A stretch of DNA of 64,000 bases, from positions 492,963 to 556,962 of the forward strand of contig CAVZJG010000003.1 of the NCBI GenBank assembly GCA_963775575.1. The letters run 5' to 3'. Below are positions 3,550-56,705 of this stretch, piece by piece (the first letter of the stretch is position 1; every line of letters starts with the position of its first letter). Below the pieces are notes generated by a model that was given only the letters and a program-made list of their open reading frames with translations, was not told the origin of the DNA and did not search any database. Origin of the DNA: an uncultured Alphaproteobacteria bacterium (lineage in GTDB: Bacteria > Pseudomonadota > Alphaproteobacteria > Rhizobiales > Beijerinckiaceae). Both the position numbers and the translations under genes were made by a program.

Positions 3550-5566
<2,017 letters not shown>

Positions 5567-24141: not shown

Positions 24142-24455
24142 CTAGAGCTACCGGATTCACGCATCGCAATTCGATGCCTTCCGGGTCCGCTGTGCCTGAT
24201 CCGTGCTCGGCGTCAATGTCGAGCCCGCTTCGCGGGTTGCTCGCTTCGCTCGCAAACATATGACCCCTCCGCGCGGCTCAGGCTCTTCGTTTCCATGATC
24301 TTTGTTGAGCAGGCCGGCCCTGTGGGCCGGCCTGCTCAACAAAGATCATGGAAACAAAACCGCCGCATCGGCGCGTCGCGGTCACCGCGGGGCGGGCGTA
24401 GCGCAGCGGAGCAGCCGCGCAGCGGCTTGACGGCGACGCGCCGATGTGGCCGCCG
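24142..24455. repeat. structured ~330-bp repeat, copy B
   Basis: Same orientation as copy A. Contains a perfect 31-bp-arm hairpin at 24289-24355. Confidence 0.75.
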
Positions 24456-30616: not shown

Positions 30617-31531
30617 TTACCCAAGCAGCCGCTTCAGTGCGTCCGATTGCTCGGCGAACTTTCGGGCATTGGTCTTCCGCAGCCGTTCCAGGTTTTGCAG
30701 CTTCCAGCGCGGGCCAGGGAGTTGCTCAAGATGCGGCACACCAAGCAGCGACCATTCGGGCTCCGCGGCGACCAGTGACAGCAGGAACCGGCGCTCATCG
30801 GCGCTCAGACCTTCCTGGAGCTCACGCATCATGCGCACGCGCACCGTCAGGAGCGCGTCGAGATCGACGGGTTTGGCGGTCATGCCTGTAAAATTGTGCT
30901 CGAACTCCTGGCGGATGTCGCGCAGCGACGGAAACAGGACCTCGTGCACCGGCCGGTTATGGCTCGCGAGATAGACGACGAAAGCCCGACGAATGCCGGC
31001 GGTGATTCCCTCATGCGCGAAGAGCTGCAGGACGTCGAACAGATCGCGGGGATGCTGGCGGTCCATCGCCGCGACCAGCTTGCCGCCATACACGTCCTCG
31101 AGCGACACGACCGGGATTTCGAGATCAGCATGCAGCGTCTGCCGCGCATTCTGTGTCAGCGACGCCATGCGCACCGGTTGGACGGTGCCGCGCATGACGA
31201 AGTTGACCTCGATCTTGACCTCGATGCGGCTCCGTCGCACCAGCAGCTTGGTCTCGCCGGACTCCACCGCGGCCGGCGCATGGGTCTGGAAGCCTTGCTT
31301 CCGCAAGCGTGCGGCGGACTGGCGAATAGCCTCGTTGATGCGCCGGAGCGCCTGATCGCGCGGCAGCGCGTGGTCGGGAAACACCAGATCGAGATCGACG
31401 GAAAGGCGCGGCATGTTGCGCAGGAACAGGTTGATCGCTGTGCCGCCCTTGAGCGCGAACGTGTCGTCGACAAGCACCAGCGGCGCGACGCGCGTCAGCA
31501 GCCGTGCACTGTCGAGATAGATCTGGTTCAT
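30617..31531 (-). CDS. abiEii: AbiEii/AbiGii-family nucleotidyltransferase toxin (type IV TA)
   Basis: FALKGGTAINLF...PRLSVDLDLVF. The start overlaps the upstream stop (ATGA). Confidence 0.85.
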   Translation of the reverse strand: MNQIYLDSARLLTRVAPLVLVDDTFALKGGTAINLFLRNMPRLSVDLDLVFPDHALPRDQALRRINEAIRQSAARLRKQGFQTHAPAAVESGETKLLVRRSRIEVKIEVNFVMRGTVQPVRMASLTQNARQTLHADLEIPVVSLEDVYGGKLVAAMDRQHPRDLFDVLQLFAHEGITAGIRRAFVVYLASHNRPVHEVLFPSLRDIRQEFEHNFTGMTAKPVDLDALLTVRVRMMRELQEGLSADERRFLLSLVAAEPEWSLLGVPHLEQLPGPRWKLQNLERLRKTNARKFAEQSDALKRLLG

Positions 31532-32265
31532 GGTTTCAGCACCAGGAGCCCGTCACCGGAACGGGACACCCATGGCCGGTCGCTGCCCTTGGGCAATTGA
31601 GACGGATCGAGCTTAGCGGCCCAGGGCTGGGAGAGTTCGCGGCCGAGCTGCAGGCACAGGCGCACGGTCTTGACGCTGGTGCAGCGCTTGAGCAGGTCGC
31701 GCAGCACGTCGGCGCGCAGGCTGTAAGTGCTCTCGACCAGTTCGCGTGCTTCCTGCAGCGGCTGCCGGACGCCGACTTCGCTCAGCACCTCCAGCAGTGC
31801 GCGCTCCGGCGCCGAGACGAGCGGGCCGCCCTTGCGGTTCTCGAAGGGTCTAACATGAAGCAGCGCGCCGGGCTGCTCCTTGAACAGCCGCTTGCGGTGG
31901 TGCTCGGCCGGGAAGCGCTGGGTGAACCACTCCGGAAGGCGCCCAGCTTTCCAGCCATAAAGCTGTAGGACAGGCCGTTGGGACAGGTATTGGCGTATGC
32001 CATGCCAGTCGAGCGCGGACTTGCCGCCGACATGCAATCCATCGAAGCTCCGCTGCAGCAGAGCGAGGCTCGGATGCAAGGCGGGCGGATCGTTCGGCCG
32101 GCAATAGACGCCGCGCGCCAGCCGTTGCAGCCAGCCGGCACGGACATAGTGGACGGCGAGATCAGCCGATATCCCCAGGGCGGCGAGGTCCTCGGAGATC
32201 AGCGGCGTGCCCGGCGCCAAGCGGGTATAAAGCCGATTTAGCTTGTTCCTATGAGTCGTAGGCAT
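31528..32265 (-). CDS. abiEi: AbiEi-family antitoxin/transcriptional regulator
   Basis: LISEDLAALGIS...YVRAGWLQRLARGVYCRP. Start MPTTHRNKL at 32265. Confidence 0.8.
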   Translation of the reverse strand: MPTTHRNKLNRLYTRLAPGTPLISEDLAALGISADLAVHYVRAGWLQRLARGVYCRPNDPPALHPSLALLQRSFDGLHVGGKSALDWHGIRQYLSQRPVLQLYGWKAGRLPEWFTQRFPAEHHRKRLFKEQPGALLHVRPFENRKGGPLVSAPERALLEVLSEVGVRQPLQEARELVESTYSLRADVLRDLLKRCTSVKTVRLCLQLGRELSQPWAAKLDPSQLPKGSDRPWVSRSGDGLLVLKP

Positions 32266-32460
32266 ACTACGATTATAGCAACAATTCGAAAGCCGGGCCA
32301 GGTTTGGATTCAGTGCCGCCATCGTAGCCCAGATACGATAATTCGTACTATCTCAAATGGACGGGGAAAGCCTTCCCCTGCGGCCGAGCCTACGGTCTCG
32401 GCCGACCCCTTCTGCGGGGACACCCCGCAACGCCCCGAGAGCCAGAGTGCGGACGGGTTT

Positions 32461-32511
32461 GCCGTGACGGGTTTGAGATCGCGAGAGAGGCTCGCGGCGC
32501 CCGTCGCGGAG
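32461..32511 (+). promoter_or_regulatory. conserved hairpin motif, copy 1 (upstream of ardC)
   Basis: CCGTGACGGG-TTTGA-GATCGCGAG-agag-GCTCGCGGC-G-CCCGTCGCGG-AG ends 7 nt before ATG 32519. Confidence 0.6.
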
Positions 32512-32518
32512 ATCCGCG

Positions 32519-33482
32519 ATGTCCAGACATGACCGCAGCGCCCGTTCCGGCCCCGACCGGACGAGCCTCTACGACGAAATCACCGACAAGATCATCACCG
32601 AGTTGGAGGCCGGCCGTGCGCCATGGGTCCAGCCTTGGGGCACGGCGGCGGCGAAGGCGCCGCTCGCCATGCCCAGGAACGCCTCTACGCACCGCCGCTA
32701 CTCGGGCATCAATGTGCTGATCCTCTGGGGCGCTGTCGTCGAACGCTGTTTCTCGGGCCAGAGTTGGTTGACCTTCCGCCAAGCGCTGAGCCTTGGCGGC
32801 CACGTGCGCAAGGGTGAGCACGGCACGACCGTCGTCTATGCTGATCGCTTCACGCCCGATGACGAACGGCGGCGCGCGGCAGAGACGGGCGAAGAGGCGC
32901 AGGCAATCCCGTTCCTGAAGCGCTTCACCGTCTTCAACACAGCACAATGCGAGGGCCTGCCGGACGAGATGGCGGCGGTGGCGCCGCCGGTCGAGACCGG
33001 CCTCGTCCTCCCGCAAGCGGAAGCGCTGATCCGGGCGACCGGCGTGGATTTCCGAATCGGCGGCGAGAGGGCATTCTACGACCCACGGCATGACTTCGTG
33101 CAGGTCCCACCTCCGCAGGCCTATTTCGAGGCGATCAACTGGCACAGGACCGCGCTGCATGAACTTGGGCGCACGCAAGTGGAGCAGTCCACCGACTGAA
33201 CCGCGAACTCTCAGGCTCCTTCGGCACGAAAAAGTATGCCTTCGAGGAATTGGTCGCCGAAATGAACGCCGCCTTCTGCTGCGCCTCGCTCGGTATCGCG
33301 CCAACCGTCCGTCATGCCGACTACATCGCCTCCTGGCTCGAGTTCTGCGCGAGGACAACCGCGCCGTCGTCCGCGCCGCCTCACAGGCGAGCAAGGCCGC
33401 CGACTACATCCTCGGCTTCCTGCCGGAGGATCAGCGGCCCGCCGCTATGGCCTCCGACAGCGATGAGCGAAAGGCTGCATGA
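32519..33482 (+). pseudogene. ardC: ArdC-like antirestriction protein (ssDNA-binding domain plus zincin metallopeptidase), disrupted by two frameshifts
   Basis: The N-terminus is intact (LYDEITDKIITELEAGRAPWVQPW). HELG is followed by a 2-nt insertion near 33170. The next frame reads ...HRLNRELSGSFGTKKYAFEELVAEMNAAFCCASLGI...ASWLE. A 1-nt deletion near 33343 shifts to the third frame, LREDNRAVVRAASQASKAADYILGF. Confidence 0.8.
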
Positions 33483-33580
33483 TGCGGCGCCGCCGAAACG
33501 TGAAACCGCTCCTGCGTGCTACGCTTTTCCGGCTTTCCGGGTCTGCGGCCCGCGAGAGAGTAAGAGGGCTGCGCCGGTTT

Positions 33581-33631
33581 CCGTGACGGGTTGGAGGTCG
33601 AGAGAGAGTCTCTCGACCGCCCGTCGCGGAG
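33581..33631 (+). promoter_or_regulatory. conserved hairpin motif, copy 2 (upstream of the parB-like gene)
   Basis: CCGTGACGGG-TTGGA-GGTCGAGAGA-gag-TCTCTCGACC-G-CCCGTCGCGG-AG ends 9 nt before ATG 33641. Confidence 0.6.
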
Positions 33632-33640
33632 ACTACCCCG

Positions 33641-35764
33641 ATGGCTGCTGCCGTTCAGAAGATCACCTTGTCGTCGTCGCGCGACATTCCCTTCAACAAG
33701 CTCATTCTCAGCCAGTCGAACGTCCGGCGTGTGAAGGCCGGCGTTTCGATCGAAGAGTTGGCCGAGGATATCGCCCGGCGCACGCTCCTGCAGAGCCTCA
33801 GCGTCCGGCCGGTGCTCGACGCCAAGGGTCAGGAGACCGGTATGTTCGAGATTCCGGCCGGCGGCCGTCGCTACCGGGCGCTCGAATTGCTGGTCAAGCA
33901 GAAGAGGCTCGCAAAGACCGCCTCGGTCCCTTGCGTCGTGCGCGAGGGCGGCGTCGCCGAGGAAGACTTTTTGGCCGAGAACGTCCAGCGTGCGCCGCTT
34001 CATCCGCTTGACCAGTTCCGCGCTTTCCAGACGCTGCGTGAGCGAGGCGAGTCCGAGGAGGAGATCGCCGCAGCCTTCTTCGTTGCGGTGAACGTAGTGA
34101 AGCAGCGGCTGCGCCTCGCCGCCGTCTCGGAAAAGCTCCTCGCCATCTATGCCGAAGATGGCATGTCGCTGGACCAGCTCATGGCCTTCGCCGTGACGAC
34201 CGATCACGCCCGTCAGGAGCAGGTTTGGGACGCGGTCCAGCGCTCCTACGGCAAGGAGCCCTATCAGATCCGGCGCATGCTGACGGAGCGCACCATTCGG
34301 GCCTCCGACAAACGCGCTCTGTTCATCGGCTTCGCCGCCTATGAGGCGGCCGGCGGCGGCGTCATGCGCGATCTCTTCCAGCAGGACGATGGCGGCTGGC
34401 TGGAGAATGTCGCCCTCCTCGACGGCCTGGTCGCCGAAAAGCTGAAGGCCGAGGCGGCGACCATCGCCGCCGAAGGCTGGAAATGGATCGAGGCAGCCGT
34501 CGACTTCCCCTATGGCCACGCCCACCATCTGCGCGAGCTGGAAGGCGCGACGGCGGACCTCACGGCCGAGGAGCAGGCAACGATCGACGCCTTGAACGCC
34601 GAACATGCCAAGCTCGAAGCCGAATACGAAAACGCCGACGAGTTGCCTGACGGGGTGGACGAGCGGCTCGGCGAGATCGAGACGGCGCGCGCCGCGTTCG
34701 AGGATCGTCGGGTCAGCTATGATCCGGCTGAGATCGCCCGCGCCGGCGTCTTCGTCAGCATCGACGCAGATGGCAAACTTTCCGTCGATCGCGGTTATGT
34801 TCGGCCCGAAGATGAGGCGCCCGTCACAGTGGACGGCGGCAGCGAAACGGTAGCCGATCGCGGTCTGCCTGAAGGCGTCGAACCGTCCTCCCCCGACGTA
34901 CACCGCGCCGTCATCACCATCGGGGGCCGGTCCGAGCCGGAAGAGGACGAGGACGACGTCATCAGACCGCTGCCCGACCGGCTCGTCAGCGAACTGACTG
35001 CGCATCGGACGCTGGCGCTGCGCGACGCCGTGGCGAACAATCCGCACGTCGCAATGACGGCGCTCCTGCACAAACTCTGCCTCGACACCTTCCAGCCCAG
35101 CGCATCTGGCGCCTGCCTGGAAGCCTCGGTCCGGCACGTCTTCTTCCCCGTCCAGGCGCCGGACCTCAAGGACAGCCCGCCCGCCAAGGCGGTCGCCGAG
35201 CGACACGAAGCCTGGAAGGCCGACCTGCCGAAGGACGAGACCGCGCTCTGGGATTGGCTCGCCGCTCTCGACGAAGCCAGCCGAGGCGCCCTCCTGGCGC
35301 ATTGCGTGTCGTTCGGCGTCAACGCCCTCTATGAGAAGGGCGATCGCTATGGCGGCCCGGGCGTCTCCGTCCATGGCGTCCACCGCCGTCTCGCCCAGGC
35401 CGATCGGCTCGCGCAGGCGGTCGGGCTCGACATGATGGAAGCCGGTTGGCGGCCGACGGTCGACAACTATCTCGCGCGCGTCACCAAGCCCCGCATCCTC
35501 GAAGCGGTGCGCGAGGCCAAGGGCGAGCAGTCGGCGCAACTCATCGGCCACCTCAAGAAGGCCGACATGGCTAAGGAGGCCGAACGGCTGCTCGAGGGCA
35601 CGGGTTGGCTGCCCGAGCCGCTGCGCCTGGCCGTCAGCGAGCCGGCGCCCGACGCGCATACCGATGAGGTAGAGGCGCTGCCGGAGTTCCTCGCGGGCGA
35701 CGACGATGCGGCCTCTGCCGAGGAGGCAGACGAGCCACAGCCACGCGCCGTCGCCGCCGAGTGA
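33641..35764 (+). CDS. large ParB/Srx-domain protein (ICE ParB-like nuclease/partition protein)
   Basis: The N-terminus IPFNKLILSQSNVRRV...EIPAGGRRYRALELL is the ParB N-terminal domain. 707 aa. Confidence 0.85.
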   Translation: MAAAVQKITLSSSRDIPFNKLILSQSNVRRVKAGVSIEELAEDIARRTLLQSLSVRPVLDAKGQETGMFEIPAGGRRYRALELLVKQKRLAKTASVPCVVREGGVAEEDFLAENVQRAPLHPLDQFRAFQTLRERGESEEEIAAAFFVAVNVVKQRLRLAAVSEKLLAIYAEDGMSLDQLMAFAVTTDHARQEQVWDAVQRSYGKEPYQIRRMLTERTIRASDKRALFIGFAAYEAAGGGVMRDLFQQDDGGWLENVALLDGLVAEKLKAEAATIAAEGWKWIEAAVDFPYGHAHHLRELEGATADLTAEEQATIDALNAEHAKLEAEYENADELPDGVDERLGEIETARAAFEDRRVSYDPAEIARAGVFVSIDADGKLSVDRGYVRPEDEAPVTVDGGSETVADRGLPEGVEPSSPDVHRAVITIGGRSEPEEDEDDVIRPLPDRLVSELTAHRTLALRDAVANNPHVAMTALLHKLCLDTFQPSASGACLEASVRHVFFPVQAPDLKDSPPAKAVAERHEAWKADLPKDETALWDWLAALDEASRGALLAHCVSFGVNALYEKGDRYGGPGVSVHGVHRRLAQADRLAQAVGLDMMEAGWRPTVDNYLARVTKPRILEAVREAKGEQSAQLIGHLKKADMAKEAERLLEGTGWLPEPLRLAVSEPAPDAHTDEVEALPEFLAGDDDAASAEEADEPQPRAVAAE

Positions 35765-35896
35765 TGCCGGGAGCGGGGCGGCTTCAACCGCCCCGCTTCC
35801 TTCTCGACCTCCCGTTCCACCCGACAGCCCGGCCATCTCCAGGCGATTGCTTGCAATCGTCCGCGCGCCGGGCTTTCGCCTTCCTGGAGAAACCAC

Positions 35897-36658
35897 GTGG
35901 CCGACTACTTCTCTCCCACTGTCATTCAGCAGACGATACCGAACGCGGATATCACGCCGTTGGAACGTCTCCTGCTCACCCGAATCTTCAGCGCCGAACC
36001 CGACGGTGACGGATTGTATTTCTTTGCCGACGAGCGTCCGGCTGACATGATTTCGGTGAGTCACGCCGAACTCGAGGCCGCGCTCGCCGGGTCCGCATTG
36101 GCCGACAGCGAAGTGAACGCCCATGTCGCGGGGCAGTTCGCGAAGGCGCGCACAGACGCCGACGAGATCGAACTCGATCTCAGCGGCATGTCCTGGGAGT
36201 TCATCCTGCAGGACATCGTGCGCCGATCGTCCACGCTCCGCTACGTCACCGCGATCACGTCCTTCACTTGTTCGAAGATGCGGCCGGACGGCTTCGGCGG
36301 CATGGCGGTGCTGATCACGGCGGACGCGATCAAGGGCAAGTCGACCAGCGACATCCTGGAAGACTTCCTCTCGCAGATGGAAGACGACAGCCCCGCGCAC
36401 CAAACGCATGTTCTCCTCGACCTTCGCGAGCACGCAGTCAGAGAACAGATCGGCCAGGTAATCGAAACCGACCCGACGCTTACTCGGCTGACGGCCGAGG
36501 CCATCAGCGACGCCGACATCCATGCGGCATGCATTGCCATAGCGGCGCAGAGCGAGCTGTCGGAGGAACGCGGCGCTGCCGAGTTTCGCGCCGCGCTCGC
36601 AGCGATCGGAGAAGCGGAGCGCCGACAGGCCGTGCGCGGCATAGGAGGCGCGCGATGA
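35897..36658 (+). CDS. hypothetical ICE protein (253 aa)
   Basis: Coding-like ORF with ATG start. Its stop overlaps the next start (ATGA). Confidence 0.6.
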   Translation: MADYFSPTVIQQTIPNADITPLERLLLTRIFSAEPDGDGLYFFADERPADMISVSHAELEAALAGSALADSEVNAHVAGQFAKARTDADEIELDLSGMSWEFILQDIVRRSSTLRYVTAITSFTCSKMRPDGFGGMAVLITADAIKGKSTSDILEDFLSQMEDDSPAHQTHVLLDLREHAVREQIGQVIETDPTLTRLTAEAISDADIHAACIAIAAQSELSEERGAAEFRAALAAIGEAERRQAVRGIGGAR

Positions 36659-36885
36659 GCATCCCCGACCACGCTCGCGCGAATTTCCAGACGCTGTTGC
36701 GCGCCGCGGCCTCCGGCGATCTCGCGCTCATGGAATGCAGCGACGGCGCGACGGGCGAGCCCCGTTACGTCATCTGCGCGGTGGGCCGCGACGGCGCGGA
36801 TTTCGTGTTCGCGCCTTTCGGCCATCTCGCCGACGGCAACCCCTACGACGCCTATCTGCCGCCCTCCGAAACCCTGCCGGGATGA
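36655..36885 (+). CDS. hypothetical small ICE protein (76 aa)
   Basis: MSIPDHARANFQTLLRAAASGDLALMEC..., translationally coupled to the upstream gene. Confidence 0.55.
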   Translation: MSIPDHARANFQTLLRAAASGDLALMECSDGATGEPRYVICAVGRDGADFVFAPFGHLADGNPYDAYLPPSETLPG

Positions 36886-37047
36886 TCCCCAACCTGATCC
36901 GTTTGTCGCGGCCTGACTTGTCTGGGCGCGGCGGTTCGCCGGTCAACGGGCAAGCCGTTCCCGCATCGTCTGGCGCCGATGCGTGACCCGCGAAGCCTGG
37001 ACCGCGCCCGCTCGCCAGTCCGCCGCGACACGCGGGATCAGGAGGCG

Positions 37048-37374
37048 ATGAGCGATATGCAGGGCTCTCAACAAGCATAAGGCGGGCCCGCCGGCGGGGC
37101 CGTCACTATCAGCCGCGACGGCAAGTGGGGCAATCCGTTCCGCATCGGTTCGGACGGCGATCGCGCCGCCGTCATCGCGAAACACGCACGCTGGCTTCGC
37201 GACCAGCATCATCTGCTGTGCGCGCTCGACGAGCTGCGCGGCCGCGATCTCGTCTGCTTCTGCGCGCCGCTCGCCTGTCATGGCGATCTGCTGTGGCTCT
37301 CCAACGCCACGCGCGACGAGCGGATCGCATGGTGGCGCGGCCTCGTCGGGCCGAGCCGGTGGGCGTGCGCGTAG
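37048..37374 (+). pseudogene. DUF4326-family gene with an in-frame TAA at codon 11
   Basis: AGGAGG lies 2 nt upstream of ATG 37048. TAA at 37078-37080 is in frame. Downstream in the same frame is ...ISRDGKWGNPFRIG...LVCFCAPLACHGDLL (DUF4326 signature). No start codon lies between the stop and the motif. Confidence 0.6.
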
Positions 37375-37429
37375 CGCGTCCGCGCACGACCGGCGCCGCA
37401 ATACCTGCGCCGTGAGAGGGAGAGGGCGG

Positions 37430-37499
37430 CCGGGACGGATTTGAGCCGGTAGGATCGAGAGAGAGCGCCCCTCGGCTCGATCCGTCCTCGCTCTCCCGG
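37430..37499 (+). promoter_or_regulatory. conserved hairpin motif, copy 3 (upstream of the methylase-helicase gene)
   Basis: GGGACGGAT-TTGAGCCGGTAG-GATCGAG-...-CTCGATC-CGTCC is a more diverged version. It ends 11 nt before ATG 37511. Confidence 0.5.
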
Positions 37500-37510
37500 G
37501 GTTTACCACC

Positions 37511-40500
37511 ATGTTGACATCCTCCGCCACGGCGGCCGCGTGCGCGGCTGCGCCGTTCTCCGCGATGCCCGCCAGCACGGCCCTTGCCGCCCGCATCGCC
37601 GACGCCGCGCGTCTTCTTCTCCCCGATCTCGAACGCGGCCGCCGCATCGACGCGGCCACGCTTCGCGCCGCGATGGAGCGCGCCTTCGGCGGTTCCGATG
37701 CGGAAGGCGCCTGGGACTGGAAGACCGCCTATGACGCCTGCGAGGCGGCGACGGTGCTCTTTCTTCGCAAGTTCGGCCCGGCCATTCGCTTGCACGCCGC
37801 GTCGCCCGCCGCCATGCTGCCGATGCTAGCGAAGATCGCGGGCCTCCTCCCCACCCATACGCGGCGCTCCGAGGAGAGCCAGGCGCTCCAGCAATTCTCG
37901 ACGCCGGTCGCCCTCGGCCTCGCGGCGAGCGCCGCCGCCGCAATCACCTCGGCGGATCGCGTGCTGGAGCCTTCGGCCGGGACCGGCCTGCTCGCGATTC
38001 TCGCGGAGCTCGCCGGCGGCGCGCTCGTGCTCAACGAGCTGGCGGGCGCCCGCGCGGCGCTCCTCGGCCATCTCTTTCCGGGCGTCACGGTCACCCGGTT
38101 CGACGCGGCGCAGATCGATGATCATCTCGATGCCGACAATACGCCGAGCGTCGTGCTGATGAACCCGCCCTTCTCGGCGATGGCCCATGTCGATCGCCAC
38201 ATGGCGGACGCCACGCTCCGTCACATCAATTCCGCTCTCGCGCGCCTCGCCGAAGGCGGTCGCCTCGTCGCCATCACCGCGGCGAGCTTCGCGCCGGACA
38301 ACCCGGTTTGGACCGACGCCTTCGTCCGGCTGCAGCAACGCGGCCGCGTGGTGTTCTCGGCCGCGATCGACGGCGCGGTCTACGCCAAGCACGGCACGAC
38401 CATCGACACGCGGCTGACCGTGATCGACAAACGGCCGGCCGACGATCCCACGCTCTTCCCGACATCGCCGGGGATCGCGCCTGACGCTGCGACGCTGCTC
38501 TCCTGGGTGATGCAGCACATTCCCACGAGGCTGCCGATCGCCGCGGCCGTCGCGGTTTCCCCGGTCGCGCGTCCGGCCATTCCCCGGACTGCGCGCGCAT
38601 ACGCCATGCGCCCGTCCTCCATTCCCGCTAGTACGGTAGAGCCCGAGGCGATCGAGCTCGCCTATGAGACCGTCGACTGGACGCCGGCCGAAGGCGGCGG
38701 AATCACCGATGCGCTTTATGAAGAATACGGATTGCAGTCGATCCGTATTTCCGGCTCTCAGGCGCATCCCACCAGACTGGTGCAGTCAGCGGCGATGGCC
38801 TCGGTCGCGCCGCCGAAGCCGAGCTATCGACCGCATCTCTCAGCGAACATCGTCTCGGGCGGCCTGCTGTCAGACGCGCAGCTCGAATCCATCGTCTATG
38901 CCGGCGAGGCCCATTCGGACTTCCTCGCGGGATCGTGGATGGTGGACGCTGCCTTCGATGTCGTATCCGCCGCACGGGAAGACGCCGAGAACGCCTTCCG
39001 CTTCCGCCGCGGCTGGTTCCTCGGCGACGGCGCCGGCGCCGGCAAGGGCCGCCAGGTCGCCGGCATCTTGCTTGATAATTGGCTGAAGAGCCGTCGCCGC
39101 GCCGTCTGGGTGTCGAAGTCGGACAAGCTGATCGAGGACGCCCAGCGCGATTGGTCGGCGCTCGGCATGGAACGCTTGCTGGTGACGCCGCTGTCGCGCT
39201 TCCGTCAGGGCACGCCGATCCGTCTGACGGAGGGCATCCTATTTGCGACCTACGCCACGCTACGGTCCGACGAACGCGGCGAGAAGGCTTCCCGCGTGAA
39301 GCAGATCGTCGAATGGTTGGGCTCCGATTTCGACGGAGTGATCATTTTCGACGAGAGCCACGCCATGCAGAACGCCGTCGGCGGCAAGGGCGAGCGCGGC
39401 GACCAAGCGGCATCGCAGCAGGGCCGCGCCGGACTTCGCCTCCAGCACGCGCTGCCGAACGCGCGCGTCGTCTACGTCTCCGCGACCGGCGCCACCACCG
39501 TTCACAATCTCGCCTACGCCCAGCGTCTCGGCCTCTGGGGCGGCGAAGATTTCCCCTTCGCCACCCGCGCCGAGTTCGTCGAAGCCATCGAGGCGGGCGG
39601 CGTCGCGGCGATGGAGGTGCTGGCGCGCGACCTCAAGGCTCTCGGTCTCTATGCCTCGCGCTCCCTCAGCTACGAGGGCGTCGAATACGAGTTGCTCGAG
39701 CACCAGCTCACCGACGAGCAGATCCGCATCTACGATGCCTTTGCCGGGGCGTTCTCGATCATCCACAACAATCTCGCCGCGGCTATGGAGGCCGCGAACA
39801 TCACCGGCGAGACCGGCACGCTGAACGCGCAGGCGAAGTCCGCCGCACGCTCCGCCTTCGAGAGCGCCAAGCAGCGCTTCTTCAATCACCTCATCACCGC
39901 GATGAAGACGCCCTCGCTGATCCGCTCGATCGAGCGTGATCTGGAGGCGGGCCGTGCCGCCGTCATCCAGATCGTCTCCACCGGCGAAGCGCTAATGGAG
40001 CGCCGGCTTGCCGAGATCGCGACAGAGGAATGGGGCGACGTCCAGGTCGACATCACGCCGAGGGAATACGTTCTCGATTACCTCGCCCATTCCTTCCCGG
40101 TGCAGCTCTACGAACCGTTCACCAACTCCGAAGGCAATCTCTCGTCTCGGCCGGTCTATCGCGAAGGCCAGCCGGTCGAGTGTCGCGAGGCCGTCGCCCG
40201 CCGCGACCGACTGATCGAGAAGCTCGCTTCTCTCGCGCCCGTTCCCGGCGCGCTCGACCAGATCGTGCAGCGTTTTGGCGCCGACGTCGTCGCCGAGGTG
40301 ACGGGACGCAGCCGTCGGATCATCCGCAAGGGCGACCGCCTCATGGTCGAGAACCGCGCCGGTTCGGCCAATCTGGGCGAAACGCAAGCCTTCATGGACG
40401 ACGTGAAGCGCATCCTCGTCTTCTCCGACGCGGGCGGCACCGGGCGCTCCTACCATGCCGAGCGATCGGCGAAGAACCGGCGGCTGCGCGTCCACTATTT

Positions 40501-41845
40501 GCTGGAGGCCGGATGGAAGGCCGACGCCGCGATTCAGGGGCTGGGCCGGACGAACCGCACCAACCAGGCGCAGCCGCCGCTGTTCCGGCCGATCGCGACC
40601 AACGTGAAGGCGGAGAAGCGCTTCCTCTCCACCATCGCCCGCCGTCTCGACACGCTGGGCGCGATCACCCGCGGCCAGCGTCAGACCGGCGGTCAGGGGC
40701 TGTTTCGCCCCGAGGACAATCTGGAGAGCCACTATGCGCGCGACGCCCTGCGCCAGCTCTATCATCTGCTGGTCAAGGGCAAGATCGAGGGTTGCTCGCT
40801 CGGGCTGTTCGAGGATACGACCGGGCTGAGGCTCACCGACTCGAACGGCATCAAGGACGAACTGCCGCCGATCACGACCTTCCTGAACCGGTTGCTGGCG
40901 CTCACCATCGACCTGCAGAACGTGTTGTTCACGGCGTTCGAGCAATTGCTGACCGCCCGCATCGAAGGCGCGATCGCCAGCGGCGCCTATGACGTCGGGC
41001 TGGAGACGCTGCGGGCCGAGAGCTTCATCGTCACCGACAGGCGCACGATCTATTCCCATCCCGGCACGGGCGCTGAGACCCGGCTGCTCACCGTCACGCA
41101 GCGCGAGCGCAACCGGCCGGTGACGCTCGTTGAGGCCCTGGATCGTCGCTCCGACCGCCGCGCCGTGTTGGTGATCAATGAGCGCTCTGGCCGGACGGCC
41201 GTGCAGGTCCCCGCGCCCAGCCTCATGCTCGACGACGGCGAGATCGAACGGCGCGTGCGGCTCATCCGTCCGATGGAAGCGCACAACGTCCCGCTGAAGA
41301 TGATGGCGGAAAGTCATTGGGTCGAGGCTGACCGCGAGGCTTTCGCCGCCGCGTGGCAAGCAGAGCTTGCCGACGTGCCGGAGTTCACGGACAGCACGAT
41401 CCACATCGTCGCCGGGCTGCTGTTGCCGATCTGGAAACGACTGCCAAACGAAGGCGCGCGGGTTTACCGGCTCCAGACAGATTCCGGCGAACGCATCATC
41501 GGCCGCAGGGTCTCGCCCGCGTGGGCCGCGGGCGCGGCAGCGACGGGCGCGCCCGCGTTGACGCCGGACCAGGCGTTCGCCGCGCTGATGGACGGTGGCG
41601 CCATCCTCAACCTCGCCGAAGGACTTCAGCTCCGCTGCGTCCGCGTCATGGGCGCGAGCCGCATCGAATTGTCGGGCTTCACCGACGCGATGCGCGATCG
41701 GCTGCGCGCCGATGGCCTCTTCCATGAGATCATCTCATGGAAGCTTCGGATGTTCGTTCCGACCGACGCCAGCGGCGTCGCCATCCTGGCGAAGCTGCTG
41801 GAGCGCTACGCAATCGAGCGCGTCGCGGACCGCGGGGCCGCCTGA
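37511..41845 (+). CDS. N6-adenine methyltransferase fused to a strawberry-notch-like helicase (1444 aa)
   Basis: LEPSAGTGLL and VLMNPPF (SAM and NPPF motifs), then GDGAGAGKGRQ (P-loop), IIFDESHAMQNA (DExH), and a Sbno-type C-terminal domain. Confidence 0.9.
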   Translation: MLTSSATAAACAAAPFSAMPASTALAARIADAARLLLPDLERGRRIDAATLRAAMERAFGGSDAEGAWDWKTAYDACEAATVLFLRKFGPAIRLHAASPAAMLPMLAKIAGLLPTHTRRSEESQALQQFSTPVALGLAASAAAAITSADRVLEPSAGTGLLAILAELAGGALVLNELAGARAALLGHLFPGVTVTRFDAAQIDDHLDADNTPSVVLMNPPFSAMAHVDRHMADATLRHINSALARLAEGGRLVAITAASFAPDNPVWTDAFVRLQQRGRVVFSAAIDGAVYAKHGTTIDTRLTVIDKRPADDPTLFPTSPGIAPDAATLLSWVMQHIPTRLPIAAAVAVSPVARPAIPRTARAYAMRPSSIPASTVEPEAIELAYETVDWTPAEGGGITDALYEEYGLQSIRISGSQAHPTRLVQSAAMASVAPPKPSYRPHLSANIVSGGLLSDAQLESIVYAGEAHSDFLAGSWMVDAAFDVVSAAREDAENAFRFRRGWFLGDGAGAGKGRQVAGILLDNWLKSRRRAVWVSKSDKLIEDAQRDWSALGMERLLVTPLSRFRQGTPIRLTEGILFATYATLRSDERGEKASRVKQIVEWLGSDFDGVIIFDESHAMQNAVGGKGERGDQAASQQGRAGLRLQHALPNARVVYVSATGATTVHNLAYAQRLGLWGGEDFPFATRAEFVEAIEAGGVAAMEVLARDLKALGLYASRSLSYEGVEYELLEHQLTDEQIRIYDAFAGAFSIIHNNLAAAMEAANITGETGTLNAQAKSAARSAFESAKQRFFNHLITAMKTPSLIRSIERDLEAGRAAVIQIVSTGEALMERRLAEIATEEWGDVQVDITPREYVLDYLAHSFPVQLYEPFTNSEGNLSSRPVYREGQPVECREAVARRDRLIEKLASLAPVPGALDQIVQRFGADVVAEVTGRSRRIIRKGDRLMVENRAGSANLGETQAFMDDVKRILVFSDAGGTGRSYHAERSAKNRRLRVHYLLEAGWKADAAIQGLGRTNRTNQAQPPLFRPIATNVKAEKRFLSTIARRLDTLGAITRGQRQTGGQGLFRPEDNLESHYARDALRQLYHLLVKGKIEGCSLGLFEDTTGLRLTDSNGIKDELPPITTFLNRLLALTIDLQNVLFTAFEQLLTARIEGAIASGAYDVGLETLRAESFIVTDRRTIYSHPGTGAETRLLTVTQRERNRPVTLVEALDRRSDRRAVLVINERSGRTAVQVPAPSLMLDDGEIERRVRLIRPMEAHNVPLKMMAESHWVEADREAFAAAWQAELADVPEFTDSTIHIVAGLLLPIWKRLPNEGARVYRLQTDSGERIIGRRVSPAWAAGAAATGAPALTPDQAFAALMDGGAILNLAEGLQLRCVRVMGASRIELSGFTDAMRDRLRADGLFHEIISWKLRMFVPTDASGVAILAKLLERYAIERVADRGAA

Positions 41846-52658: not shown

Positions 52659-54413
52659 ATGACGACCCGTGACGACGAGTTCCACATCCAGCCCGGCCGC
52701 ATCCGACACGGCGCCCAGGGGGCCAAGCGTCCGAAGTCGTTTGTCGGCGAGGCGATGCGGGCGGCCAAGAAGGCCGGCCACACGGGGAAGAACTTCGGCC
52801 GAACCACCGGCGGCAAGCAGCGCTCGACCTTCGGCCGAGGACGCAGCGCCGCTCTCGCCCTGTCATCGCGATCACGCGCCCGGCGTGTCGTCGTCATGGC
52901 CCGGATCGTACGCCACCACGGCAAGCGATTCGCCTCGGCGCCGCTGACAAGGCACATCGCTTATCTCAAGCGCGAGGGAGTAACGCGGGACGGAACGGAC
53001 GCACGGATGTTTGGCGCGGACTCCGATGCGGCCGATACGCAAGCCTTCGCCGAGCGATGCGAAAATGACCGGCATCATTTCCGGTTCATTGTTTCTCCAG
53101 AAGACGCCGCCGAGCTCGAGAGCGTTGGCGCCTTCACGCGCGAACTGATGGCGGATGCCGAGCGGGACCTCGCAACGAAGCTCGACTGGGTCGCTGTGGA
53201 CCACTGGAACACCGACAATCCGCACGTCCATCTCCTGATCCGCGGTCGCGCCGACGACGGCCAGGACCTCGTCATCAGTCGCGACTACATCAGTCGGGGC
53301 TTCCGCGATCGCGCCGCCGAGCGCGTCTCCTTGGAGCTCGGCCCGCGCAGCGAGCAGGAAATCCGATCGTCCCTGGAGAAGGAAGTCGAGGCCGAGCGCT
53401 GGACCAGCCTCGATCGGGCGCTGCGGAACATCGCCGACGACTGCGCCGGCGTCGCGAATCTACGACTTGGCGCGTCGGACGAAGACCCCGAGCTGCGCCG
53501 GCTTATGCTAGGCCGCGCGGCAAAGCTCGAACGGCTCGGGCTCGCCGAGAAAGTCGGCACGGCGTGTTGGACGTTGAAGCCCGGCGCCGAGCAGACGCTG
53601 CGCGACCTTTCAATCCGCGGCGACATCATCAAAACCATGCACCGCGCGATGATCGGCGCCGGCCGTGAACCGGATGTCTCCGGCTTCGCCTTGCACGGCG
53701 ATGACCCAGCCGCTCCTGTCCTCGGCCGGCTGGTCGCGCGCGGGCTGCACGACGAGCTGAAGGGATCGGCATACACGATTGTCGAGGGCGTCGATGGCCG
53801 GACCCATCATCTGCGCTTTCCCGACTTGGAAATGACCGGCGACGCCAGACCCGGCGCGATCGTCGAGGCGCGATCGTATGAAGATGCGAGCGGGCGGAAG
53901 CGGCTGTCCCTTGCTACGCGTTCGGACCTCGCTATTGAGGCGCAGGTCACCGCGTCAGGCGCGACCTGGATCGACCGTCAGCTTCTCGCGCGCGAACCGG
54001 CGAACAGCGGCGGAGGATTCGGCGCCGAAGTTCGCGAGGCAATGGAGCGTCGTGTCGATCACCTCGTTGAGGAGGGCATGGCGCGCCGGCAGGGCCAGCG
54101 GGTCGTATTCGCGCGCGATCTGCTCGACACCCTGAAGCAGCGCGAGCTGGGCGAGGCATCTGCAAAACTCGCGGCTGAAACCGGCCTCGCGCATCGCCCG
54201 TCTGCCGAAGGCGAGCACGTCGCCGGCGTCTATCGCCAGCGTGTCACGCTCGCCTCGGGGCGGTTCGCCATGATCGATGATGGTCTCGGTTTCCAGCTCG
54301 TGCCCTGGCGGCCCGCGCTGGAGCGGCAACTCGGAAGAGAAGTTTCAGGCGTAATGGCGCCCGGTGGAACGGTTGAATGGAATTTTGGGCGCAGAAGGGG
54401 AATAGGAATGTGA
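52659..54413 (+). CDS. relaxase/mobilization nuclease (RlxS-like, DUF3363)
   Basis: HIAYLKREGV..., HFRFIVSPED, HWNTDNPHVHLLIRG (histidine triad). Confidence 0.85.
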   Translation: MTTRDDEFHIQPGRIRHGAQGAKRPKSFVGEAMRAAKKAGHTGKNFGRTTGGKQRSTFGRGRSAALALSSRSRARRVVVMARIVRHHGKRFASAPLTRHIAYLKREGVTRDGTDARMFGADSDAADTQAFAERCENDRHHFRFIVSPEDAAELESVGAFTRELMADAERDLATKLDWVAVDHWNTDNPHVHLLIRGRADDGQDLVISRDYISRGFRDRAAERVSLELGPRSEQEIRSSLEKEVEAERWTSLDRALRNIADDCAGVANLRLGASDEDPELRRLMLGRAAKLERLGLAEKVGTACWTLKPGAEQTLRDLSIRGDIIKTMHRAMIGAGREPDVSGFALHGDDPAAPVLGRLVARGLHDELKGSAYTIVEGVDGRTHHLRFPDLEMTGDARPGAIVEARSYEDASGRKRLSLATRSDLAIEAQVTASGATWIDRQLLAREPANSGGGFGAEVREAMERRVDHLVEEGMARRQGQRVVFARDLLDTLKQRELGEASAKLAAETGLAHRPSAEGEHVAGVYRQRVTLASGRFAMIDDGLGFQLVPWRPALERQLGREVSGVMAPGGTVEWNFGRRRGIGM

Positions 54414-54655: not shown

Positions 54656-56500
54656 TTACCGCGCGAAGGCGGCGGATCGCTCGGTCACGATGGCGATCAC
54701 CTTGTCTTGCGCGGCTCGGGCACTGTCCGATCGACCCGCAAAATCGGGCAGGCGCAACGATGCGGCGCGCGCCGCGAGACGCGACGCAAGCTCAACCACC
54801 GTCGCCTCGGCTTCGCCCGTCGGCAGACCGATCGTGCGCGCCAGTGCGAGGAAGTCTTGCAGGCTCAGCCGGTCGTCCTTGCCATTGAGCTTCAACGCCA
54901 TCCGGTCCCCGCCCAACCCCGGAAAGACGCGCGTGGTGACGGCGTCATAGAGCGGCGCAAACCGGACGGACGTGAACGCTTTGGCTCCAGCGTCGGCCGT
55001 TTTGAGCATGGCGAGGTTCTTAAGGTGCATGTCGCCATCAGCAATCAGCCAGGCGAAGACGGCCCGCTTAAACAGGATTTCAAGGTCAGCCGCAGGTTCG
55101 GTCGACAGCGGCCGCAGGCCCCTGGCAATGCGTTCGATCGTGCCGTCGTATTTTGCCGAAGCCGGAAGATCCAGGATCGAGCAGAAGTCCTCCAGCGCAA
55201 GGCGGCGTTGGTCCTTGGGACCGCGCCGGATGTCGAAACGCTCGACCACCAGCGCCGGCGACATGCCATCGGGCATTTCAATGAGCGCCGCTGCCGGGGC
55301 GTCAAAACCGGCCGCACGTCCGAACTCGAGACAGAGCCACTCCACGACGGGCAACGCCGCGAACCCGGCCGTACCGGCCGGTTTGAGAATGTGCGTGAAC
55401 GGCTGGTCGATGGCCGGGACGAGAGCGCCGTCGGCGGCAAGGCTCATCGGCGCCTTGATCTGGACGCCCGACAGGCGGGGCGTCTCGGCGCGCGCGAAGA
55501 TGCGCGCGAGATTCTGCTCGAAAGTCTCCTCGATCTCCCCGCGCGCCGGTCCGGCATAGCGTCCGGTGAACCGGCCTGCATCGGTGAAGGCAGCGAGCGG
55601 CGCGGCGAGGACGTCGGCCGGCAACGCGGCCAGTTCCTCGCGGCTTTCGACGATGGCGATGTTCGACATATAGCGCCGGCCGCGGCGAAGCGCCTCGCGT
55701 TCGTCGCGTTCATGCAGAACCTGCGCGAGCCAGCCTTCGGGCAGGAGCGACTCGATGAAGGCCGGAAGCTTTCCCGGCGTGGTCTCCCGCACCAGCGCCG
55801 GCCCAACGCGCTTTTGCGGTTTCCATCGCCATTCGAAACCGTCATGCGTCAGCCGTCCGAGCGGGTCGCCGTGCCAGGCGACGAGAAGGTCGAGCGCCGC
55901 CTTGTTGACTGGAGCCTTGGCCGTTCCCGGCTGGGCCAGGAGGTAGCGCTCGGCGCCCTCGCCTTCGCGATACCAAGCATTCTCGCGAGCCAGCGCCCAG
56001 ACCGCGCCGGCCGCAGCCTGCGGGGACCCATGCTCTTCGACCAGACGCGCCGCCATCTGAGTTCGCATGTCCACGGTGACCGCGCTGGCGTGCTCACTCC
56101 TCAGCCGAAAGGCTTCCAGGAATCGCTGGCGCGGCGACGACACATCGATACGCAACTCCCCCAGATCGTCGCCGATCACCGCTATCGCCGTCGACGGATG
56201 CGGCGGCGCCTCGTTCTGGACGATCTCAAGGGTGCGCAGGCGGGTGCGTTGATTGCGCCGGCCGCTAATGAAAAGTCTTCCGTCCGGCGTGGGCGCCAGG
56301 AGAACCGCGCTCGCGGACGACAAATAGGCCTTTGGGTAGAGATAATGGGCGATGCGGACGGCATGGCCGAGGATCGCGGCCTCCGCGTCCCCGTCGTGAT
56401 CGACATAAACGCCGCGGACAAGCTGGATCAGCTCGCCCGCTTGGGCCCGAAGGTGCGCCCGCTTGGCGTCGATGGTTTCGCCGACAAGATGGATGGTCAT
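54656..56500 (-). CDS. HipA-family Ser/Thr kinase fused to an AbiEi-like N-terminal domain
   Basis: The C-terminal ~400 aa carry LLPEGW, SGVQIKAPM, DGDMHLKNLAML and FAPLYDAVTT (HipA N-terminal plus kinase core). The N-terminal ~230 aa carry AGELIQLVRGVYVD...AYLSSASAVLL, like AbiEi antitoxin domains. Start at 56500, alternative 56515. Confidence 0.8.
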   Translation of the reverse strand: MTIHLVGETIDAKRAHLRAQAGELIQLVRGVYVDHDGDAEAAILGHAVRIAHYLYPKAYLSSASAVLLAPTPDGRLFISGRRNQRTRLRTLEIVQNEAPPHPSTAIAVIGDDLGELRIDVSSPRQRFLEAFRLRSEHASAVTVDMRTQMAARLVEEHGSPQAAAGAVWALARENAWYREGEGAERYLLAQPGTAKAPVNKAALDLLVAWHGDPLGRLTHDGFEWRWKPQKRVGPALVRETTPGKLPAFIESLLPEGWLAQVLHERDEREALRRGRRYMSNIAIVESREELAALPADVLAAPLAAFTDAGRFTGRYAGPARGEIEETFEQNLARIFARAETPRLSGVQIKAPMSLAADGALVPAIDQPFTHILKPAGTAGFAALPVVEWLCLEFGRAAGFDAPAAALIEMPDGMSPALVVERFDIRRGPKDQRRLALEDFCSILDLPASAKYDGTIERIARGLRPLSTEPAADLEILFKRAVFAWLIADGDMHLKNLAMLKTADAGAKAFTSVRFAPLYDAVTTRVFPGLGGDRMALKLNGKDDRLSLQDFLALARTIGLPTGEAEATVVELASRLAARAASLRLPDFAGRSDSARAAQDKVIAIVTERSAAFAR

Positions 56501-56504
56501 CGGA

Positions 56505-56588
56505 TTATCTCGCATCTCAGATGCGCGTTGATCCTGCTCCAGGCTTAAACAGTCAAGAATTATCTCGCATCTGAGATACGAGATATTG
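56505..56588. promoter_or_regulatory. two copies of the TTATCTCGCATCT(C/G)AGAT operator-like palindrome upstream of or over the hipA-like start
   Basis: The copies lie at 56505-56522 and 56560-56577. The distal copy is part of a 13-bp-arm palindrome TATCTCGCATCT-G-AGATACGAGATA. Confidence 0.55.
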
Positions 56589-56705
56589 CCGTCATCACGC
56601 TGACCCACAAGCCGTCCGAATCCTTCGCCGCCCTATCCTGAAACGCGCCCGCCAGCAATTCGGGCTTGAACGCGCCATAGAAGGGTCTCTTGATCCCCCT
56701 GCGCC

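Follow-up and report, generated by a model that had tools for sequence, protein, structure and literature searches.

What is the function of a hairpin that recurs directly in front of one gene after another in a mobile element? This question is raised by a 64,000-nucleotide stretch of the alphaproteobacterial contig CAVZJG010000003.1 (the window), where such a structure stands immediately upstream of ardC, a parB-like gene and a methylase-helicase gene of an integrative and conjugative element (ICE). A previous sequence-only reading had described the structure as a covarying hairpin present in three copies. Our analysis of related loci confirmed a conserved fold with compensatory changes and led to the conclusion that the motif is a real and widely conserved family with two sister types, apparently undescribed. 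The whole signal spans about 100 bases and consists of a purine-rich box followed by a highly stable covarying hairpin that contacts the ribosome-binding site. As to its role, we give roughly an even chance to an operator in the mRNA leader or between cistrons that gates the translation of an "establishment regulon".

The copies in the window comprise the following parts, where R1 and R2 denote the covariance models of types 1 and 2 built from orthologous loci:

32437-32447, + strand: purine box of copy 1 (GAGAGCCAGAG), which aligns with the near-invariant AGAG..AGAGG box of the family
32455-32515, + strand: type 1 hairpin of copy 1, from its fold and an R1 match at 32426-32521 (70.3 bits, E = 1e-16)
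33554-33568, + strand: purine box of copy 2 (GAGAGAGTAAGAGGG), predicted to be unpaired
33576-33634, + strand: type 1 hairpin of copy 2, from its fold, its covariation and an R1 match at 33545-33643 (105 bits)
37414-37497, + strand: type 2 element, copy 3, from an R2 match at 37399-37513 (107.6 bits, E = 2e-33), its fold and type 2 covariation

The hairpin ends a few nucleotides before a start codon in every copy. As first delimited, the three hairpins stop short of the ATGs at 32519 (ardC), 33641 (parB-like gene) and 37511 (methylase-helicase gene) by 7, 9 and 11 nt, respectively, in agreement with the 7-11 nt originally given. Copy 1 is built from a basal helix (32455-32472/32499-32515), the bulge UUUGAG and an upper helix (32477-32485/32491-32498), and copy 2 from a basal helix (33576-33591/33619-33634), the bulge UGGA, an upper helix (33596-33605/33609-33618) and the loop GAG. 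The GGAG Shine-Dalgarno sequence that had been noticed in both (32508-32511 and 33628-33631) sits in the 3' strand of the basal helix and is paired. The sense RNAs fold at -38.5 kcal/mol (z = -4.0) for copy 1 and -46.3 kcal/mol (z = -6.4) for copy 2, and the corresponding antisense strands fold far more poorly. Searching the 64-kb window for the arm pair CCGTGACGGG-N(15-45)-CCCGTCGCGG returned two matches, at 32462-32509 and 33581-33629, against a chance expectation of 0. While the hairpin itself had been located correctly, the element proved to be longer: copies 1 and 2 already resemble each other from about 25 nt 5' of the hairpin onwards, where the purine box lies (32437-32447 and 33554-33568).

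Copy 3 folds into a longer and different hairpin (-48.8 kcal/mol). Its purine box (37414-37426) pairs with CGCUCUCCC at 37489-37497, and further pairs are GGGACGGAU/AUCCGUCC and GAGCCGG/UCGGCUC, with the apical GAGAGAGAG unpaired; a weak Shine-Dalgarno sequence, GGGG (37498-37501), lies outside the helix. The outer arms, which had been thought common to all three copies, are GGGACGGA/UCCGUCC here instead of CCGTGACGGG/CCCGTCGCGG, and the inner stem GATCGAG/CTCGATC assigned to this copy is not kept in other loci, where the conserved pairs are GAGCCGG/CCGGCUC and the purine box with CGCUCUCCC. Both types share the 5' purine box (GAGAGnnAGAGG), a GACGG(G/A)UU(U/G)GAG arm (GACGGGUUKGAG) and a GAGAGAG apex. 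Their models also cross-match weakly, copy 3 scoring only 18.6 bits with R1. The count of three copies thus stands, the third as a solid member of type 2, but not as one family: copies 1 and 2 form type 1, and copy 3 belongs to a sister family, type 2. No copy was found before other ICE genes of the window or in its non-ICE half. One weak R1 match on the minus strand inside the relaxase gene (52780-52875, 14.9 bits) was treated as chance. Separately, a near-perfect palindrome at 24295-24349 with arms of about 22 bp (GATCTTTGTTGAGCAGGCCGGCC..) gave weak matches to the hairpin model in both orientations (11.6 and 10.7 bits); unrelated to the motif, it could be a bidirectional terminator.

Conservation of type 1 was surveyed with one genome per species, which gave 80 loci carrying an orthologue of the ParB-like protein (66-82% amino-acid identity). 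The motif stands directly before the ATG in 80/80 of these genomic loci and is thus kept in related elements. Alignment of 69 distinct sequences, from which R1 was built, revealed a constant order: first the near-invariant purine box AGAGgaAGAGG and some 12 variable positions, then a basal helix of 13 bp (yUUCGUGACGGG/CCCGUCGCGGAGa), the internal loop UUGGAGG on one side only, and an upper helix of 10 bp with a near-invariant 5' strand, GAGAGAG, and the loop GAG. Within the 3' strand of the basal helix the GGAG is invariant in this alignment and paired in 93-100% of sequences. GAGAGAG stays near-invariant while its pairing partner varies (UCUCUC, UCUUUC, GCUCCC).

Plain MAFFT alignments analysed with RNAalifold recovered only part of type 1 and almost nothing of type 2 because the 3' arm was misaligned, and this approach was replaced by hand-drawn or minimum-free-energy-derived structures, covariance models and pair counts. 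With the hand-drawn type 1 structure, 93.2% of alignment cells hold standard pairs, compared with 43-51% when the 3' partners are slid; double changes occur in 11/23 pairs, a value reached by 0/500 shuffles, and in 17/23 pairs for 130 distinct sequences aligned to the model structure. R1 yielded 145 matches in the 80 gene-oriented genomic loci, all on the + strand. The window carries three copies of the motif, and loci elsewhere carry two or more. A possible upstream mini-ORF (open reading frame) or leader peptide was rejected, as the GTG..TGA frame of ardC-type copies is not kept in parB-type copies and indels exclude coding.

About 75 loci share the conserved type 2 region that precedes the methylase-helicase gene. 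It has the form GAGAGGGAGAGG-ACGGCCGGGACGGGUUUGAGCCGG-..-GGUCGAGAGAGAGCGCC-..-CCGGCUCG-CCCGUUCCCGCUCUCCC-GAGG-N9-AUG, with the Shine-Dalgarno sequence 1-2 nt beyond the end of the helix. Individual folds average -48 kcal/mol, mostly with the purine box and CGCUCUCCC paired and the GA apex unpaired. Under R2, 85% of cells are paired, compared with 35-56% for slid partners, double changes occur in 16/25 pairs, and all 89 matches in gene-oriented genomic loci lie on the + strand. In some loci, the stop codon of an upstream ORF ending in ..IAWWRGVKAAA falls directly at the purine box of type 2.

The imperfections of the helices indicate on which strand pairing is selected. The type 1 alignment contains 452 G-U cells and only 46 A-C cells, and several wobbles recur at fixed positions. 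Because neutral decay of a DNA palindrome would yield both kinds of mismatch equally, we concluded that pairing is selected on the sense strand. In addition, folding favours the sense strand in 129/130 type 1 and 62/69 type 2 sequences with either RNA or DNA parameters; antisense means for types 1 and 2 are -22 and -38 kcal/mol with RNA parameters and -10.5 and -18.7 kcal/mol with DNA parameters.

These data bear directly on the idea of a double-stranded DNA operator of the KorB or Reg type, in which the inverted arms would be half-sites of an element-encoded repressor, absent from a fresh recipient, so that a burst of expression follows transfer. Reg/EGeRS2 of plasmid p576 provides a precedent (PMC8708921), the element encodes ribbon-helix-helix proteins, and the arms are conserved, with both changing together (GACGGG/CCCGTC to GACGGA/TCCGTC). 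Yet the asymmetries are nearly all sense-strand G-T (452 versus 46), some at fixed positions, the inner helix between the arms covaries as well, and the half-sites would lie about 38 bp apart. Moreover, no promoter was detected in or beside the element, and intercistronic gaps of 22-31 nt are too short for one. We consider such an operator improbable.

A single-stranded DNA element raises the question of which strand is transferred. In ICEMlSymR7A, the origin of transfer (oriT) is located between the rdfS-traF-msi107 operon and rlxS (PMC11963761), a site that corresponds to about 52.4-52.5 kb in the window, and genes for relaxases are as a rule found in the lagging region (PMC11541004). From this layout of oriT and relaxase, we infer that the strand transferred is the one that serves as template for the motif genes (antisense). 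Selection acts on the sense strand, which would then be the non-transferred one, and this makes RNA structure the simplest reading. A Frpo/ssi-like promoter, as the sequence-only reading had suggested, or a priming site for complementary-strand synthesis would act on the transferred strand. Consistent with either, the gene set resembles that of a leading region (PMC11541004), the motif genes lie on the leading side and point to oriT, so that the transferred strand would be their template, and the antisense strand is still able to fold. The conserved columns of the motif, however, show no -35/-10-like hexamers or UP-like sequences. As the Shine-Dalgarno sequence lies within or abuts the hairpin, the mRNA must begin upstream of it; a transcript begun inside the roughly 25-bp helix would miss its own ribosome-binding site. 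The cluster lies 15-20 kb from the presumed oriT, and the exact registration to start codons would be left unexplained. The promoter proposal is hence not supported, and a single-stranded DNA element of either kind appears very improbable.

This registration also speaks to another possibility, namely a selfish or neutral palindromic repeat resembling repetitive extragenic palindromes or miniature inverted-repeat transposable elements, or a leftover terminator, with no role for the genes. A GC-rich palindrome in two or three copies per element might suggest as much. However, the motif is syntenic and in a single orientation in every locus examined, absent outside the ICE part of the window, and fixed relative to start codons with an invariant Shine-Dalgarno sequence inside; compensatory changes keep its pairing across genera, and no T run follows the hairpin in the window copies. 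Even among unoriented metagenome loci, 122/136 matches end at the start ATG of an ORF that is 40 codons or longer. A neutral repeat therefore has next to no standing as an explanation.

The surroundings are those of an operon. Between 32200 and 37600, no sigma-70-like promoter was detected on either strand and only a single terminator-like site (36786-36799) was found, and in some loci the upstream stop codon comes as near as 22-31 nt to the purine box. This context fits a single transcription unit with one element per major cistron, although co-transcription is predicted from sequence. A further conserved feature precedes the first cistron:

32363-32436, + strand: highly conserved block of about 75 nt with three short hairpins (GGGGAAAGCCTTCCCC; GGCCGAG..CTCGGCC; CCCCTTCTGCGGGGaCACCCCGCAACGCCCC), from conservation and covariation

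The block is confined to the region ahead of the first motif-bearing gene in a cluster, whether ardC or a DUF932-like gene, and its core pattern is present once per locus in each of 36 matching loci. Its conservation begins abruptly at GGGGAA (GGGGAAAGCCTTCCCC), and the middle hairpin covaries; folding shows no strand bias, and the block has no Rfam match. Because the left neighbour of ardC, AbiEi, is divergent, any ardC promoter must lie in or beside this block, a candidate for the site that drives or regulates the operon. The AbiEii/AbiEi type IV toxin-antitoxin pair itself (30617-32322, - strand) adjoins the conserved cluster on the strand opposite to the backbone.

Of the roles offered by the sequence-only reading, a translational operator and a processing or stability element remain as the two best. 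We favour the former, and build it on what the sequences show about the structure and its covariation, about strand and position, and about the set of genes that follow. One copy before each major cistron in the sense mRNA of the establishment operon would act in cis as RNA: once the GC-rich hairpin forms in the transcript, the basal helix of type 1 would hold the GGAG through U-G, U-A and C-G pairs with the YUUC tract, whereas the type 2 helix would stop 1-2 nt before the Shine-Dalgarno sequence, and in both cases the hairpin would set the ease of ribosome initiation on its cistron. Purine box, UUGGAGG bulge and GAGAGAG apex are all Shine-Dalgarno-like GA tracts, at least one of which per type (two in type 1) is predicted to be unpaired. 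Such tracts could be the handle for a common reader that opens or overrides the gate, be it a 30S subunit in standby, an RNA-binding factor or a nuclease, by which the motif genes would be switched together. As a bolder extension, which we put forward only tentatively, the motif would be the cis-signal of a dedicated post-transcriptional establishment regulon common to a very large alphaproteobacterial family of ICEs and plasmids, in which a reader of the GA tracts switches all anti-defence and establishment cistrons around transfer; this reader could be a protein, a nuclease acting on GGAG in the manner of T4 RegB, or the 30S subunit.

Several observations weigh against a translational gate. 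Its main weaknesses are that occlusion of the Shine-Dalgarno sequence holds for type 1 alone and that the reader was not found. The median cost of opening the Shine-Dalgarno sequence is 7.4 kcal/mol for type 1 and 2.2 kcal/mol for type 2, compared with 4.7 kcal/mol for seven other genes of the window. With type 2 below background, the two types may differ in mechanism, or occlusion may be beside the point. Searches by tblastn with E. coli queries detected homologues of CsrA, ProQ or Hfq neither in the window nor in the loci, and the window contains no CU-rich partner for the GA tracts besides the 3' strand of type 2 itself. The pair counts from the 130-sequence type 1 alignment and from type 2 come from alignments fitted to the model structure and therefore lean towards structure. 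In loci L065, L072, L073, L076, L079 and L080, a hairpin that resembles a rho-independent terminator and has a T run precedes the type 2 purine box by 15-25 nt, an awkward finding that fits poorly with simple co-transcription.

The serious rival, to which we assign a low but real probability, is a site of RNA processing or stability, at which RNase III or another nuclease would cut the helix, split the polycistronic establishment transcript into mRNAs of single-cistron size and free or stabilise the downstream ribosome-binding site. The architecture suits such a site: a 13-bp lower helix, a one-sided internal loop of 5-6 nt on the 5' side and a 10-bp upper helix give 23 bp in type 1, and type 2 reaches about 35 bp. 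The intercistronic location in an apparent operon, with gaps down to 22-31 nt, and the selection on the sense strand are likewise as expected, and processing would give both types a shared function despite their unlike Shine-Dalgarno accessibility. On the other hand, one cut alone would leave the Shine-Dalgarno sequence of type 1 trapped in the GC-rich basal helix of 13 bp, and the conservation of the invariant purine box and of GAGAGAG would be left unexplained. Cleavage is a prediction, and is partly compatible with the translational gate that we prefer.

The genes behind the motif were already described as being of the establishment and anti-defence kind, and the related loci bear this out and widen the set to DUF932-like, RadC, ArdB/KlcA-type and small genes. 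In the window, the three motif-bearing genes are:

32519-33482, + strand: ardC, with ArdcN and zincin-like metallopeptidase domains, from Pfam matches in two separate reading frames
33641-35764, + strand: ParB_N-domain protein of 707 aa, the motif-bearing gene in every related locus
37511-41845, + strand: Strawberry-notch-type helicase of 1444 aa, from domain matches (AAA_34, Helicase_C_4)

The ardC gene is broken by two frameshifts relative to intact orthologues of 315-320 aa (a 317-aa protein was compared), namely two surplus nucleotides (GC) near 33172 and a G lacking near 33340, and represents either a pseudogene or assembly errors. For the 1444-aa protein, an N-terminal methyltransferase region is suggested by weak NCBIfam matches and by its orthologue on plasmid pMLb, which is annotated as a bifunctional methyltransferase/helicase. 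Across the 80 genomic loci, type 1 elements precede genes for the ParB-like protein (80), ArdC (39), a protein of about 398 aa with a weak DUF932 match (19), a 182-aa family (3) and RadC (1); the same families, together with one of 128-131 aa, follow type 1 elements in 80 metagenome loci. The metagenome loci were collected by an exact core pattern, which matched at least 120 metagenome stretches and had no match in IMG/VR viral contigs. Extra type 2 copies stand before an ArdB/KlcA-type anti-restriction gene (PF03230) and before genes of uncharacterised 90-, 123- and 333-aa families.

Between the parB-like and methylase-helicase genes (35765-37400 in the window) lies a variable island of 0 to about 10 small genes, some with their own type 2 element (examples are loci L004, L005, L018, L022, L055, L072 and L073). 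These small genes are candidate new anti-defence genes, for which the motif offers a guilt-by-association handle. If the proposed establishment regulon holds true, every motif-bearing gene, including the 90-, 123-, 131-, 182- and 333-aa families, would become a candidate for an anti-defence or establishment function.

The motif belongs to a large and very widespread group of alphaproteobacterial conjugative elements, both ICEs and plasmids, with carriers in Mesorhizobium, Bradyrhizobium, Agrobacterium, Paracoccus, Sphingomonas and other genera. By gene content and order, the element in the window is an ICEMlSymR7A-type conjugative element (PMC11963761): an opposite-strand AbiE pair is followed by ardC, the parB-like gene, the variable stretch, the methylase-helicase gene and genes for DUF7146-Toprim, SLOG and DUF736 proteins, then by those for a DUF2285 (FseA-like) regulator, RepA, ParA, a ribbon-helix-helix protein, the S26 peptidase TraF, a lytic transglycosylase and a DUF3363 relaxase, and after the relaxase by HipA, TraG, TrbB and TrbE. 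The HipA-like kinase gene (54656-56608, - strand) is inserted between relaxase and traG, opposite to the strand of the backbone. The conjugative plasmid pMLb of Mesorhizobium japonicum carries the same ardC/parB/methylase-helicase/toprim cluster with two type 1 copies, and its intergenic DNA in this cluster carries no annotation. The FseA box was considered and dismissed, as its two inverted hexamers, 15-16 bp apart beside a -35 (PMC10359603), are unlike the element.

How conjugative elements time their anti-restriction and establishment genes is understood mainly from the enterobacterial F/IncI models. A short, sharply defined and covarying signal makes the question directly testable with small reporter constructs.

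Comparison with known RNA families supported the earlier impression that the element has no described counterpart. A scan of the whole window against Rfam release 15 at gathering thresholds returned only a TPP riboswitch, and at E <= 10 the region 31500-38500 gave three chance-level matches to unrelated families and none to radC or STAXI; a literature search likewise found no description of the motif. The riboswitch (RF00059; 5429-5533, - strand; 72.5 bits) lies upstream of a 636-aa gene (3550-5460, - strand) and is chromosomal, outside the ICE.

With respect to RNA processing, the early transcript of T7 and the N leader of lambda contain paralogous hairpins with an internal loop that are cut by RNase III just before each early cistron of the invading DNA, including an anti-restriction gene, and in the lambda N leader the hairpin hinders ribosome binding until it is cut. 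Our elements resemble these sites in their length of about two helix turns, their asymmetric internal loop and their position between cistrons. The helices in the window, however, are far more GC-rich, and the purine box and GA apex have no counterpart there. The Rhizobiales-1 motif (Weinberg 2010), in turn, is an unrelated genome-wide hairpin repeat.

Among candidate RNAs of mobile DNA, the radC motif (RF01754) is a candidate cis-regulatory RNA of Proteobacteria, located in the 5' untranslated regions of genes for RadC, integrases, DNA methyltransferases and anti-restriction proteins (PMC2864571). The gene associations overlap, and one type 1 copy precedes radC, but the window motif, which gave no Rfam match, has another architecture, a plain hairpin of two helices preceded by a purine box. 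STAXI, also structured and repeated, occurs in mobile DNA close to ssb and to genes for topoisomerases, anti-restriction proteins and integrases, and its authors leaned on structural grounds towards RNA over single-stranded DNA (PMC2864571); it is a tandemly repeated pseudoknot, in contrast to the single hairpin per gene fused to the ribosome-binding site described here, and again no Rfam match was obtained. The Frpo/ssi hairpins of F and ColIb-P9 rebuild -35, -10 and UP elements on the transferred (template) strand (PMC11541004). They likewise stand before leading-region anti-defence genes whose template is the transferred strand (PMC11541004), but by their described features they differ from the window motif, which lacks the hexamers and in which pairing is selected on the sense strand.

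In concept, the establishment gene regulatory sequences (EGeRS) of the pLS20 family come closest (PMC8708921). As with EGeRS1 and EGeRS2 of the Bacillus plasmids pLS20 and p576, a repeat defines the establishment regulon (PMC8708921, PMC6294495). EGeRS1 contains many inverted repeats, lacks a sigma-A promoter, was rejected as a single-stranded DNA promoter and blocks read-through, while EGeRS2 is a promoter flanked by operators of the Reg repressor (PMC8708921, PMC6294495). EGeRS1 measures 420-750 bp compared with about 100 nt here and comes from another phylum, and no sequence relation is expected. For the motif of the window, the evidence points instead to a single covarying RNA hairpin placed at the Shine-Dalgarno sequence.

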